Shown: in pieces, positions 11,033-17,608 of the stretch
How positions within the stretch are numbered: position 1 is the stretch's first letter
How the letters are laid out: every line of letters begins with the position of its first letter
Program-made: the position numbers and the translations under genes
IMG/VR virus record: IMGVR_UViG_2531839531_000012
DNA: 31,354 bases
Reading direction: 5' to 3' (one strand)
DNA from: a virus
Lineage: Duplodnaviria > Heunggongvirae > Uroviricota > Caudoviricetes
Notes under the pieces: generated by a model
What the model was told of the DNA's origin: nothing
The model's database searches: none
What the model saw: the letters and a program-made list of their open reading frames with translations, nothing else

Positions 11033-11042
11033 TAAAGTCAAA

Positions 11043-11060
11043 GCCGCCATGATTGGCGGC
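11043..11060. terminator. Bidirectional terminator hairpin between convergent genes
   Basis: GCCGCCA-tgat-TGGCGGC: 7-bp GC stem with A/T-rich flanks, between the + strand ORF stop (11032) and the portal stop (11070). Confidence 0.6.
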
Positions 11061-11069
11061 TTAACTGGA

Positions 11070-12116
11070 TTATTCCGGGTTGTCGAGGGTGTACTCTTTG
11101 AACCTGATGACCTCTATACCGAGCCAGTCGTTTACCTCCCTGAACCTGTCCTGCAGCGGCGACAGCTCGTTACGCACAAATACCTTTGCCACCTTCTCAA
11201 CGTCACCGAGTGAGCCGATATTCTCGGGCTTGCCACCCATTAGCTGGAACGGCACGCGGTGCGCATCCATCAGGTCGGCGGCACTGGCTTTCTTGATATT
11301 GAAAAAGTCATCCTTTGTGGCGACCTCGCTCAGTGGCACGATTTTGATGCCGTCCGGTTTTCCGCCGGGGGCGTAGAAAAACAGGTTCTTAAAGTTGCCG
11401 AGCCCTTTCGAGTTACGCATCGCCTCGCGTAGTGATTCGACGTCGGTCGCGCTCTGCGCCGGGTCGGTCACATACATGATGTAGCCCGCGTGCGCGCCGT
11501 TCTGGTAATACTTGCGACGGAACAGCGTCGCGGATTCATTCAGCCAGGCAGAATTAAGCGCGCTGAGATATTCCGGCAGGCCGTAAATCTCCTGATTAAT
11601 ATCAGGCTCCAGCAGGTGAAACACGGTGTCAGGCGCGAACTCATGCGGCTGAGTGAAGTTTTCCACAAACCAGAAAATTGAATCATCAACCCCACGGCGG
11701 GTGTATTTTGCTGGTGATGCCAGCAACTTGATTAACTGGCCGGTGACGCTGTGGCGCTGCTCAAGAAAAGCGTTGCCGAAGACCAGATAGTCGAGAGCAA
11801 AACGGCTGAAATCCTGACGGGACAGCAGCGGGTGCGGAATGTAGGTGCTCGCGAGTACGTTGCGTTTAACGTAAATCGGTGAGCTGTGATGTACGGCAGA
11901 GCGCAGGCTCTTTGCCAGCCCGGAAAAGCTGACCGGCGGCTCGTACCATTTGCCGTTACTGATGCACTCGACATAATCCAGAATGTCGCGCTTATCGAGC
12001 ACCGGAACTGGCTCACCGAAGGTGAACGCTTCCATTTTTTGCGGTGCGCTGGCTTTCAGTTGCTGTGGTGCGCGTGTTTTCTGCGCGGCGGCTTTGCGGG
12101 ATTTTTGCTTACCCAT
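11070..12116 (-). CDS. Q: Portal protein gpQ
   Basis: 348 aa. P2 Q-like length and sequence. Adjacent to cos and divergent from the O operon. Confidence 0.85.
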   Translation of the reverse strand: MGKQKSRKAAAQKTRAPQQLKASAPQKMEAFTFGEPVPVLDKRDILDYVECISNGKWYEPPVSFSGLAKSLRSAVHHSSPIYVKRNVLASTYIPHPLLSRQDFSRFALDYLVFGNAFLEQRHSVTGQLIKLLASPAKYTRRGVDDSIFWFVENFTQPHEFAPDTVFHLLEPDINQEIYGLPEYLSALNSAWLNESATLFRRKYYQNGAHAGYIMYVTDPAQSATDVESLREAMRNSKGLGNFKNLFFYAPGGKPDGIKIVPLSEVATKDDFFNIKKASAADLMDAHRVPFQLMGGKPENIGSLGDVEKVAKVFVRNELSPLQDRFREVNDWLGIEVIRFKEYTLDNPE

Positions 12117-14050: not shown

Positions 14051-14905
14051 ATGGCAAAAAAAGTCTCAAAATTCTTTCGTATCGGCGTCGAGGGTGATAC
14101 CTGCGACGGGCGCATTATCAGCGCCAGTGATATTCAGGAAATGGCCGACACGTTTGACCCGCGCGTCTACGGTTGCCGCATCAATCTTGAGCATATTCGC
14201 GGTCTTTTCCCTGACGGCGACTTTAAGCGCCTGGGTGATGTGGTTGAGCTGAAAGCCGAGAAGATTGATGACGACTCTGCGCTTAACGGCAAATGGGCGT
14301 TGTTCGCTAAAATCACCCCGACCGATGACCTGATTGCAATGAATAAAAAATTGCAGAAGGTCTACACCTCAATGGAAATTCAGCCGAATTTTGCCAATAC
14401 CGGCAAATGCTATCTCGTTGGTCTGGCTGTGACCGATGACCCGGCAAGCCTCGGCACCGAATACCTCGAATTCTGTCGCAATGCAAAAAACAACCCGCTT
14501 AACCGCTTTAAGGCTAACCCTGAAAACCTGATTTCAGCGGCAACGCTTGCGGAGCTTGAGTTTGAAGACCAGCCGGAAACGGTATTTACCGCCCTGGCCG
14601 ATAAGGTGAAAGCCATTTTCAGCCGTAAGCAGGTCAGCGACGATGCGCGCCTGAATGATGTGCATGAAGCGGTGACCACCGTCAGCGAACATGTGCAAAC
14701 CAACCTGACAAAACAGGACGAGCGCCTTTCCGCTATGGAAACCGCGTTTGCCACTTTCAAACAGGAACTGACCGGCAAGGTTGAAGAAACCAGCCAGGCA
14801 TTTTCCGACCTGAAAACCACCCTCGATAAAACCGAAAGTTTCAGCCAGCCGCGACGCACGAAAGCCAGCGGCGGTGGTGGCGATGAGCTGCTGACCGACT
14901 GCTGA
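14051..14905 (+). CDS. O: Capsid scaffolding protein gpO
   Basis: 284 aa (the P2 O length). N-terminus MAKKVSKFFRIGVEGDTCDGR. Confidence 0.85.
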   Translation: MAKKVSKFFRIGVEGDTCDGRIISASDIQEMADTFDPRVYGCRINLEHIRGLFPDGDFKRLGDVVELKAEKIDDDSALNGKWALFAKITPTDDLIAMNKKLQKVYTSMEIQPNFANTGKCYLVGLAVTDDPASLGTEYLEFCRNAKNNPLNRFKANPENLISAATLAELEFEDQPETVFTALADKVKAIFSRKQVSDDARLNDVHEAVTTVSEHVQTNLTKQDERLSAMETAFATFKQELTGKVEETSQAFSDLKTTLDKTESFSQPRRTKASGGGGDELLTDC

Positions 14906-14981
14906 TAAACCGCAGACCAGAAACCGGGCGGCATCCCCGCCCGATGCAGTGACTAACCGATAAATTCAAACAGGAAATACT

Positions 14982-16049
14982 ATGCGCCCGGATACCCGTT
15001 TTAAGTTCAATGCCTATCTGACCCGCGTCGCTGAGCTGAACGGCATCAGTACTGATGATGTCAGTAAAAAATTCACCGTCGAGCCGTCCGTCACGCAAAC
15101 ACTGATGAACAAAGTGCAGGAGTCATCCGCGTTTCTGCAGACGATTAATATTCTGCCGGTCGCAGAAATGAAGGGTGAGAAAATCGGCGTCGGTGTGACC
15201 GGTACTATCGCCAGCACGACCGACACCTCGGGCGATGATGAGCGTAAGACCGCCGACTTCACCGCGCTTGAGTCCAACAAGTACGAGTGCGACCAAATTA
15301 ATTTTGACTTCCATCTGAAATATAAAACCCTCGACCTGTGGGCGCGTTTTCAGGACTTCCAGCGCCGCATCCGCGACGCCATTGTCAAACGTCAGGCACT
15401 GGATTTCATCATGGCCGGTTTTAACGGTACCACCCGCGCCGCCACCTCTGACCGCACCAAAAATCCGATGCTGCAGGATGTGGCCGTCGGCTGGCTGCAG
15501 AAATACCGCAATGAAGCCCCGACGCGCGTGATGAGCAACATCACCGACGCTGACGGTAAGGTCGTTTCAGCAGTGATTCGTGTAGGTCGAAACGGCGACT
15601 ATGAGAACCTCGACGCGCTGGTGATGGACGCCACCAACAACCTGATTGACGAGGTTTATCAGGATGACCCGAAACTCGTTGCCATCGTTGGCCGTAAGCT
15701 GCTGGCCGACAAATATTTCCCGCTGGTGAACAAGCCGCAGGAAAACAGCGAGGCGCTTGCGGCAGATATCATCATCAGCCAGAAGCGAATCGGCAACCTG
15801 CCTGCTGTGCGTGTGCCGTACTTCCCGGCGAATGCCGTGTTAGTGACCACGCTGGAAAACCTCTCTATCTATTTCATGGATGAGAGTCACCGCCGCAGCA
15901 TTGATGAAAACCCGAAAAAAGACCGCGTTGAAAACTACGAGTCGATGAATATCGACTATGTGGTCGAGGCGTATGCCGCCGGGTGCCTGCTGGAAAACAT
16001 CACCCTGGGCGATTTCACCGCACCTGCAGCACCGGAAAGCGGAGCCTAA
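14982..16049 (+). CDS. N: Major capsid protein gpN
   Basis: 355 aa. P2 N-like. Confidence 0.85.
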   Translation: MRPDTRFKFNAYLTRVAELNGISTDDVSKKFTVEPSVTQTLMNKVQESSAFLQTINILPVAEMKGEKIGVGVTGTIASTTDTSGDDERKTADFTALESNKYECDQINFDFHLKYKTLDLWARFQDFQRRIRDAIVKRQALDFIMAGFNGTTRAATSDRTKNPMLQDVAVGWLQKYRNEAPTRVMSNITDADGKVVSAVIRVGRNGDYENLDALVMDATNNLIDEVYQDDPKLVAIVGRKLLADKYFPLVNKPQENSEALAADIIISQKRIGNLPAVRVPYFPANAVLVTTLENLSIYFMDESHRRSIDENPKKDRVENYESMNIDYVVEAYAAGCLLENITLGDFTAPAAPESGA

Positions 16050-16052
16050 ACC

Positions 16053-16802
16053 ATGACGAGCCCCGCACAGCGTCACATGATGCGGGTCTCGGCCTCTCAA
16101 GCCGCGCAGCGGGAGCAAGCCCCGCTGCGCCATGCAACCGCCTATGAGCAGATGCTGGTTAAGCTGGCCGATGACCGCCGCACGTTAAAAAACATCCGTT
16201 CAAACGAACGTAAAGCCGAGAAAAAGCGCGAGCTGCTGCCGTTCTATGCGCCGTGGGTCGCCGGTGTGCTGGCTGATGGCCGTGGTGCGCAGGATGACAT
16301 TGTCATGACCGTCATGCTGTGGCGTCTCGATGCCGGTGATATCGCTGGCGCGCTGGAAATTGCCCCGTACGCGCTGAAATACGGCCTCACCTCTGACCAC
16401 CGCCGCACAACACCTTACATGCTGGTTGAGGAAGTGGCGCTTGCTGCGCAGCGCCTGCGCGATGCCGGTGAGTCTGTCGACCTTTCCTGGCTGCAGACCA
16501 CTATCGACCTGACCGACGGCGCTGACGTTCCCGATATGGTGCGCGCCCGTCTGCATAAGGTGACAGGCCTGACCCTTCGTGATGCCGGTATGAATGCAGA
16601 GGCGCTGGCGCAGTTTCAGCGCGCGATGCAGCTCGACCGCAATGCCGGTGTGCGCAAGGAGATTGAGCGACTGGAACGGGCATTGAAGCCAAAGCCAGAG
16701 GCCGCGCCCCGTAAAACGACTAAACCGCGCACGCGCAAACCTGCCAACAAACCGGCGGCAAAGCGCGGGCGTCCACCAAAGGCGGTAAAAACCGCCGGTT
16801 AA
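16053..16802 (+). CDS. M: Terminase small (endonuclease) subunit gpM
   Basis: 249 aa with a basic Lys/Arg/Pro-rich C-terminus. P2 M-like. Confidence 0.8.
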   Translation: MTSPAQRHMMRVSASQAAQREQAPLRHATAYEQMLVKLADDRRTLKNIRSNERKAEKKRELLPFYAPWVAGVLADGRGAQDDIVMTVMLWRLDAGDIAGALEIAPYALKYGLTSDHRRTTPYMLVEEVALAAQRLRDAGESVDLSWLQTTIDLTDGADVPDMVRARLHKVTGLTLRDAGMNAEALAQFQRAMQLDRNAGVRKEIERLERALKPKPEAAPRKTTKPRTRKPANKPAAKRGRPPKAVKTAG

Positions 16803-16895
16803 CTGAACGCTCCCCGAGCCGGGCGGCACGCCGGTCAAAGCGGGTTTTGACCCTGACGGCGACCGGCGTCCACCGCCCAACCTAATGAGGTTGTC

Positions 16896-17405
16896 ATGAC
16901 GACAGTAATACTGAATCAGCCCGACGAACCGCAGGACGTACCGGGCGTGGTGATTCCCGCACCGGAGACGGGCGACGCAGTGATTAAAAACACGTTCTTT
17001 TTCCCTGATGTGGATCCGAAGCGGGTGCGCGAACTGATGCGCCTTGAGCAGACGGTTTCCGATGCGCGCCTGCGCAACGCCATCAAGACCGGCATGGCGG
17101 AAACCAATGCGGAGCTTTACGACTACCGGCTGCGCCAGATTGCCGCAGGGTTTAAGACACTGGCCGACGTGCCTGACGCCGAGGAAATCGACGGCGAGAA
17201 TGTGCGCGTTTTCCACTACCTCAGCGCCGTGACGGCGATGGCGACCGCCACCCTGTATGAGCGTTATCGCGGGGTTGAGGCCACGGGCAAGGGTGACAAA
17301 AAAGCCGACAGCGTCGAAACCACCATTGATGACCTGTGGCGGGATATGCGCTGGTCGGTCTCGCGTCTGCAGGACAAGCCGCGCTGCATCGTGGGTCAGC
17401 TCTGA
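16896..17405 (+). CDS. L: Head completion/stabilisation protein gpL
   Basis: 169 aa (the P2 L length). Confidence 0.8.
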   Translation: MTTVILNQPDEPQDVPGVVIPAPETGDAVIKNTFFFPDVDPKRVRELMRLEQTVSDARLRNAIKTGMAETNAELYDYRLRQIAAGFKTLADVPDAEEIDGENVRVFHYLSAVTAMATATLYERYRGVEATGKGDKKADSVETTIDDLWRDMRWSVSRLQDKPRCIVGQL

Positions 17406-17608
17406 TGAAAGTCTACGCGATTCAGGGCGACACCCTCGACGCGCTTTGCGCCCGGTATTACGGGCGCACTGAGGGCGTGGTCGAGACGGTGCTGCAGGCT
17501 AATCCCGGTCTGTCTGAGCTGGGCGTCATTCTGCCGCATGGCACGGCGATTGACCTGCCCGACGTGGCATCGTCACCCGTAACAGAAACTATCAACCTTT
17601 GGGAGTAA
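17405..17608 (+). CDS. X: Tail protein gpX
   Basis: 67 aa (MKVYAIQGDTLDALCARYYG...). Start overlaps the L stop (TGATG). Confidence 0.8.
   Translation: MKVYAIQGDTLDALCARYYGRTEGVVETVLQANPGLSELGVILPHGTAIDLPDVASSPVTETINLWE

Follow-up and report, generated by a model that had tools for sequence, protein, structure and literature searches.

P2 and 186 are classic models of late-gene control, and the usual account of this control is purely transcriptional, with promoters activated by Ogr or B. To our knowledge, this account does not explain the protein ratios within the P2/186 late operons; phages need capsid protein in larger amounts than scaffold. Intercistronic hairpins without a U-tract are known to stabilise neighbouring mRNA, as in the case of the REP elements in malE-malF, the puf operon and the 3' hairpins of T7 RNase III sites. 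PNPase and RNase II are stopped by GC stems once these reach about 7 bp, and hairpins can also obstruct the scanning of RNase E. A typical RNase III site is a duplex of roughly 20 bp, or about two turns of the RNA helix, and is often interrupted by an internal loop. In the literature we found no description of a hairpin between the phage genes O and N or of the structured M-L element presented below, and no transcript-end or half-life data for these phages. A report (PMC11707656) on how the Lamassu defence system senses palindromic phage DNA was set aside as irrelevant, since it concerns T7-like RNase III sites.

The stretch of DNA analysed here (the window; 31,354 nucleotides of the IMG/VR virus record IMGVR_UViG_2531839531_000012) is, by its sequence similarities, a 186/PSP3-type (Eganvirus-like) prophage of the P2 family. 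Its O and N genes share 97% nucleotide identity with Salmonella phage vB_Sal_PHB48 and 78% with P2, and its N protein is 100% identical to that of prophages in Citrobacter amalonaticus and Enterobacter chuandaensis. The O-N spacer region is 92-97% identical to that of 186, PSP3, SEN1, EtG and others. The closest counterparts, the V-T spacer of 186 and the gp4-gp5 spacer of PSP3 (spacer region 92-93% identical), carry the same hairpin at the same position and with the same stem, unannotated in the records of both phages; the loops differ and read AACCC in 186, TAACG in PSP3 and CATCC here.

The hairpin between O and N

The gene for the gpO/V-type capsid scaffold and maturation protease (14051-14905, +; ORF list; Pfam Phage_GPO, E 1.4e-104) is separated by a spacer of 76 nt from the gpN/T-type major capsid gene (14982-16049, +, with its ATG at 14982; Pfam Phage_cap_P2, E 2.9e-149). 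The sequence-only reading was right on both assignments and on the spacer length. The small terminase (gpM-like) ORF follows at 16053-16802 (+; ORF list and Pfam) and a gpL-like ORF at 16896-17405 (+), while the large terminase and portal genes of the window lie on the - strand, i.e. opposite to O-N-M. The O stop codon TGA (14903-14905, +), after which an in-frame TAA follows, leads into an A/C-rich, variable stretch that is predicted to be unpaired (14906-14924, +). Next come the 5' arm CGGGCGG (14925-14931, +), the loop CATCC (14932-14936, +) and the 3' arm CCGCCCG (14937-14943, +) of the hairpin, and then the 38-nt N leader (14944-14981, +) with the Shine-Dalgarno motif AGGA of N (14972-14975, +).

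The sequence confirms the 7-bp GC stem that had been noted here, both in its letters and in its position: the hairpin (14925-14943, +) comprises seven G-C or C-G pairs and a loop of 5 nt. RNA folding gives -13.1 kcal/mol for the isolated hairpin, and when it is folded within a 260-nt segment its arms pair with a probability of about 0.99. The best hairpins of dinucleotide-shuffled spacers reach -5.5 kcal/mol on average (p about 0.01 for the real one). Such hairpins are enriched across the whole window, in which nine distinct perfect GC-rich hairpins of at least 7 bp, the O-N hairpin being one of them, stand against 1.75 expected from dinucleotide shuffles. Taken from the sequence of the window alone, the case against chance is therefore moderate; it is the conservation pattern among relatives, with low diversity in the arms and high diversity in the loop, that settles that the hairpin did not arise by chance. 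Within coding sequence, perfect GC-rich hairpins of 7-8 bp were observed at 16107-16127 (+), in the 5' part of the small terminase gene, and at 17447-17468 (+), in the ORF after L (start 17405).

With its GC-rich 7-bp stem and 5-nt loop, the O-N hairpin resembles an intrinsic terminator, but it lacks the U-tract (at least about 5 U in 8 nt) and lies within an operon, right before the most highly needed gene. Its 3' flank (ATGCAGTGACTAACC / AUGCAGUGACUA) holds no T-run, as the sequence-only reading had correctly stated, the site is absent from the terminator scan, and no T-run adjoins the stem in any of the relatives examined. A terminator on the minus strand was also rejected, as the 3' flank on this strand, GTTTCTGG, has only 4 T in 8 nt and is not conserved. 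For an RNase III site the helix is too short, with 7 bp, or 9 at most if an A-U pair flanked by a mismatch is counted. A dispersed repeat of the REP/BIME type was dismissed because our covariance model R1, built from 186-like and Klebsiella sequences and too sequence-specific to align other lineages, gives one significant match per locus, always in the O-N spacer. Weak, chance-level matches of R1 in related loci fell at positions comparable to those of the two coding-sequence hairpins noted above, about 60-170 and 1375-1410 nt past the end of N. Rfam 15 returned no match at gathering score in the whole window and, in E-value mode over 14800-15100, only chance-level matches (E at least 0.49) far below the gathering scores.

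Thermodynamic modelling likewise argues against an insulator of the N ribosome binding site, with an accessibility of the initiation region of 0.59 with and 0.62 without the hairpin. The earlier suggestion that the hairpin modulates translational coupling gained no support from the 76-nt spacer and this modelled lack of effect. An antisense ORF (14410-14934, -; 174 aa) owes its ATG to the loop (CATCC, read as GGATG on the - strand), which differs in relatives; this start codon is therefore not conserved, and the ORF is almost certainly spurious.

Conservation of the stem and its counterparts in other lineages

We gathered 65 loci from genome contigs and 80 from viral contigs, plus several phage records, and measured diversity in 79 distinct 186-like segments of 950 nt each. 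The sequence-only reading had pointed to P2 and 186 as the place to look for conservation, and this held for one of the two: the hairpin is kept, with differing loops, in 186, PSP3 and about 87 more 186-like phages and prophages, but P2 has a different, weaker one. Nucleotide diversity in the 79 segments is 0.035 in the 5' arm, 0.022 in the 3' arm and 0.017 in the core 6 bp of the stem, compared with 0.22 in the loop and 0.143 in the upstream flank. Four-fold degenerate sites reach 0.186 in O and 0.18 in N, codon positions 1+2 0.037-0.046, the Shine-Dalgarno region 0.042 and the N leader 0.04-0.08. The arms are thus 5-8 times less diverse than neutral-like sites, and since they vary about as much as codon positions 1+2 while the loop varies about as much as four-fold sites, the arms are strongly constrained and the loop drifts neutrally.

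The same pattern emerges from 50 distinct 186-like spacers, in which the non-consensus cells per column number 0.57 in the arms, 7.0 in the loop, 4.8 in the upstream flank, 2.6 in the downstream flank and 1.2 in the Shine-Dalgarno region. Loops in relatives read CAACC, TAACC, AAACC, AACCC, CGACC, TAACG and others. The rare stem variants of 186-like loci are of three types: G·U wobbles (L084, L123), an altered terminal pair (A·G in the L110 type, C·A in L130 and L139) and a lengthened helix, in which a C-to-T change makes a U-A pair (L013, L123). One locus (L012) has lost 13 nt just 3' of the hairpin and retains the stem. As judged from these comparisons, it is on the arms only that purifying selection acts, by which the structure is maintained in the 186-like clade.

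Different GC hairpins, with folding energies of about -10 to -17.5 kcal/mol, are found right after the O stop in several other lineages. Their arms are GCCGGGCGA...UUGCCCGGU in Klebsiella/Raoultella (-15 kcal/mol), GCCGGGC...GCCCGGC in Enterobacter-like loci (-13 to -16 kcal/mol) and CGGGGC...GCCCCG in Pectobacterium/Symbiopectobacterium (-10.3 kcal/mol). Serratia has CCGGGGUGC...GCGCCCCGG (-17.5 kcal/mol) or GGGGCGU...ACGCCCC (about -13.7 kcal/mol, with flanks), and Brenneria has ACAGGGGA...UCCUCUGU and ACGGAGGG...CCCUCUGU (-9.9 and -11.2 kcal/mol). In every hairpin-bearing lineage the distance from the hairpin to the N start is 27-39 nt, whereas the hairpin begins anywhere between -1 and 19 nt after the O stop. 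In the Enterobacter-like, Brenneria and Pectobacterium loci (L015-L023, L042-L050), a run of 4-5 T was observed 8-14 nt 3' of the hairpin. This run, which has no equivalent in the window, is too distant for a canonical terminator, and together with the next A-run it could form a weak A/U hairpin just 5' of the N Shine-Dalgarno motif.

Homology of pairs across lineages was anchored by eye on the shared CCGGG core and on the folding of each lineage; MAFFT alignments of spacers or trimmed hairpins misregistered the 5' arms of Enterobacter and Serratia and were not used for this purpose. Read in this manner, the pair adjoining the loop-closing pair changes from G-C (186) via G·U (Klebsiella) to A-U (Raoultella), the loop-closing pair is G-C, A-U or C-G, and a third pair is C-G, U·G or G-C. 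In an alignment of 16 sequences from the 186-like and Klebsiella/Raoultella loci (A5), 87.5% of cells are paired, compared with 34-53% in slid controls, and three pairs are changed on both sides. The covariation score of A5, matched by 12 of 500 shuffles, is modest, with a stem that barely varies in this clade.

In true P2-type loci (L005, L028, L030, L034), the only hairpins are moderately stable ones around the O stop (-9 to -13 kcal/mol, p 0.07-0.16). The corresponding helix in the window (14899-14915, +), formed by the final O codons, ACUGCUGA, and a GCAG(U) downstream of them, is weak and has 4 bp, and SEN5 (L162) has a CUGAC/GUCAG hairpin at its stop codon (about -10 kcal/mol). No hairpin was found in the 10-46-nt spacers of Yersinia, Kluyvera, Kosakonia, Buttiauxella and Arsenophonus, nor in most of the distant Peduoviridae (Fels-2, Mannheimia, Shewanella, Aeromonas, Pseudomonas and some Burkholderia phages), whose spacers range from gene overlap to 53 nt. 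In hairpin-less lineages, a homologous N leader of 31-38 nt makes up nearly the entire spacer. By this comparison, the spacer is composed of an optional hairpin module and a conserved N leader of about 30-38 nt. As the hairpin is missing in short-spacer relatives and weak in P2, it is dispensable for head assembly and modulatory rather than essential.

G·U pairs occur in the sense-strand stem of 17 of the 41 distinct hairpin variants, and the variants that bear them fold with a mean of -13.6 kcal/mol on the sense and -11.2 kcal/mol on the antisense strand. C·A pairs, which correspond to wobbles on the antisense strand, are present in two of the 41, both at the terminal pair. Because C-to-T and G-to-A changes should strike a G-C stem equally, the large excess of G·U over C·A points to selection on the sense mRNA. 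Together, the low arm diversity, the G·U variants and the compensatory changes support selection on a sense-strand RNA structure, as opposed to a DNA palindrome or an antisense RNA. Such selection would plausibly fit a stability or processing element.

The structured RNA between M and L

A second intercistronic structure lies in the 93-nt M-L spacer (16803-16895, +), which is predicted to fold at -44.5 kcal/mol (z -2.15). It consists of a small hairpin (GCUC-CCC-GAGC), a basal helix of GGGCGG (16821-16826) with CCGCCC (16873-16878), one unpaired C, a 9-bp inner helix of ACGCCGGUC with GACCGGCGU, a variable tip, an unpaired CCA and a small hairpin that contains the L Shine-Dalgarno motif. We found this element in every enterobacterial P2-family lineage examined, including the P2 type and those that have no O-N hairpin. 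In a MAFFT alignment of 31 sequences, 96.4% of cells are paired, compared with 32-46% in slid controls, and nine pairs are changed on both sides (39 cells); none of 500 shuffles reached the observed values. The covariance model R2 scores 105.6 bits at 16800-16898 (+) and 14.8 bits on the - strand, in keeping with a single-copy, strand-specific element. No Rfam family matches the M-L element, which has the look of a phage RNA motif not described before. Its two helices are stacked and its internal loop is asymmetric, a shape reminiscent of T7 RNase III sites.

The two spacer structures share an identical basal helix and 5' flank (CCGGGCGGCA), the strand, the operon and their intercistronic position. 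This 10-mer occurs exactly twice in the window, at 14924-14933 and 16819-16828 (both +), and GGGCGG...CCGCCC helices are found only at these two sites (chance expectation 0.16 and 0.12 for the two spacing classes). The M-L element, however, spans about 90 nt with at least three helices and is common to all enterobacterial lineages, whereas the O-N hairpin is a single 7-bp stem in some lineages only. No part of the M-L architecture other than the basal helix and its 5' flank recurs between O and N, and R2 gives no match at 14925-14943. In sequence, the 186-like O-N hairpin looks like a minimal copy of the M-L basal helix, and this likeness may stem from a partial duplication or from a constraint or recognition feature common to both. 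That both are sites of a single post-transcriptional control system of the head operon is a speculation to which we give hardly any weight. If it were true, one factor, whether a nuclease, a phage head protein or an RNA-binding protein of the host, would read both helices, and the output of scaffold, capsid, terminase and head-completion protein would be coordinated from one late transcript.

Possible roles of the hairpin in the late message

As a tentative reading, which we hold with less than even confidence, we propose that the O-N hairpin is a ribonuclease barrier through which the O and N segments of the late mRNA become independent in their stability. The hairpin would act as a cis-acting structure of the sense late mRNA, at the boundary between the O/V cistron and the N/T leader. 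If the late message were cut or ended in the A/U-rich leader downstream of the stem, degradation by PNPase and RNase II, which proceed from 3' to 5', could be held up by the 7-bp all-G/C stem where the O segment ends. The stem could also impede the 5'-end-dependent RNase E from entering the N-M-L segment. With either effect, one half of the transcript would outlast the other, and the output of scaffold relative to capsid would be adjusted. We infer both this mechanism and the direction of protection, for which we lean slightly towards the upstream O segment because of the documented behaviour of hairpins of this type.

The hairpin shares with the REP/BIME elements of malE-malF, the Rhodobacter puf hairpins and the T7 RNase III 3' hairpins the form of a U-less, intercistronic GC stem-loop on the sense strand, and like these stabilising hairpins it is within the size range reported to stall 3' exonucleases. 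As in barrier hairpins generally, a stable stem-loop of the sense transcript lies between cistrons, and its pairing is maintained by selection. Unlike REP/BIME elements, it is single-copy and has no REP consensus, and it is much shorter than RNase III substrates. Several points speak against a nuclease barrier. Stabilisation of O would raise scaffold relative to capsid, which is not obviously the direction needed, and the hairpin is absent in short-spacer relatives and weak in true P2. Its stem sequence, near-invariant within the 186-like clade, and the identity to the M-L basal helix could furthermore mean sequence-specific recognition.

The larger demand for capsid than for scaffold makes it intuitive that N, rather than O, is protected. 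The hairpin would then form the 5' edge of the N initiation region and guard the N-M-L RNA against decay that begins further upstream, either by obstructing RNase E or, if the message is cut close to the O stop, by stabilising the new 5' end; in another version, it would free the N ribosome binding site from long-range pairing. The near-constant distance to the N ATG, compared with the variable distance to the O stop, agrees with such a shield, but it is equally explained by the homologous N leader, which is kept without a hairpin, and in silico deletion or mutation of the hairpin, at odds with the insulating version, leaves N accessibility unlowered. We consider this role unlikely. A stem and loop of the size of an intrinsic terminator hairpin could instead act as a leaky attenuator or pause site, which halts or slows some polymerases after O, perhaps with Rho, NusA or NusG, and the T-runs downstream of the hairpin in several other lineages would be in line with this. 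Yet the stem is not followed directly by a U-tract in any of the lineages, this one included, the site was passed over by the terminator scan, and the flanks are not markedly C-rich or G-poor, unlike a Rho loading site. A stop before the most abundant structural gene, M, L and the later operon genes would moreover be counter-productive, which makes an attenuator quite improbable.

Recognition in trans would give a direct meaning to the second occurrence of CCGGGCGGCA in the 31 kb: both copies are on the + strand, in spacers of the head operon and in a GGGCGG...CCGCCC helix, whose sequence is nearly invariant in the O-N and M-L elements. One phage or host protein might bind the GGGCGG/CCGCCC helix with its CC 5' flank at both sites and co-regulate them, for example in a feedback from unassembled head proteins. 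However, other lineages keep an O-N hairpin with different stems and a free loop, as is typical of a constraint on structure only, the M-L model misses the O-N hairpin, and we know of no candidate protein for the shared helix; we regard such a factor as very unlikely. An equally doubtful alternative is that the hairpin has no function at the RNA level, being a relic (left over from a partial duplication of the M-L helix or from a terminator that eroded, for instance), a palindrome that arose by chance or an inverted repeat to which a protein binds at the DNA level. Its absence in many relatives, among them the majority of the distant Peduoviridae, and the abundance of GC-rich palindromes in the window would agree with this. 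Neither drift nor a DNA palindrome, though, leads one to expect that G·U is tolerated far above A·C, and the contrast between the constrained arms and the neutral loop, as well as the recurrence of hairpins of unlike sequence at the same site in several lineages, also argue for a function.

The nuclease barrier that we tentatively favour would be a previously unannotated element, though one of an ordinary kind. A selected RNA structure at the scaffold/capsid boundary nevertheless suggests a post-transcriptional layer in P2/186 late control. The practical gain is modest: Peduoviridae prophages could be annotated better, and constructs that co-express O and N would gain a design rule. The strongly covarying M-L element is the more valuable by-product of this analysis. 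Elsewhere in the window, we observed a terminator-like 9-bp hairpin, AAGCCGCC...GGCGGCTT, with a T-rich tail on the - strand (11041-11062), directly downstream of the portal gene (11070-12116, -), where the end of the divergent portal-terminase operon is expected.
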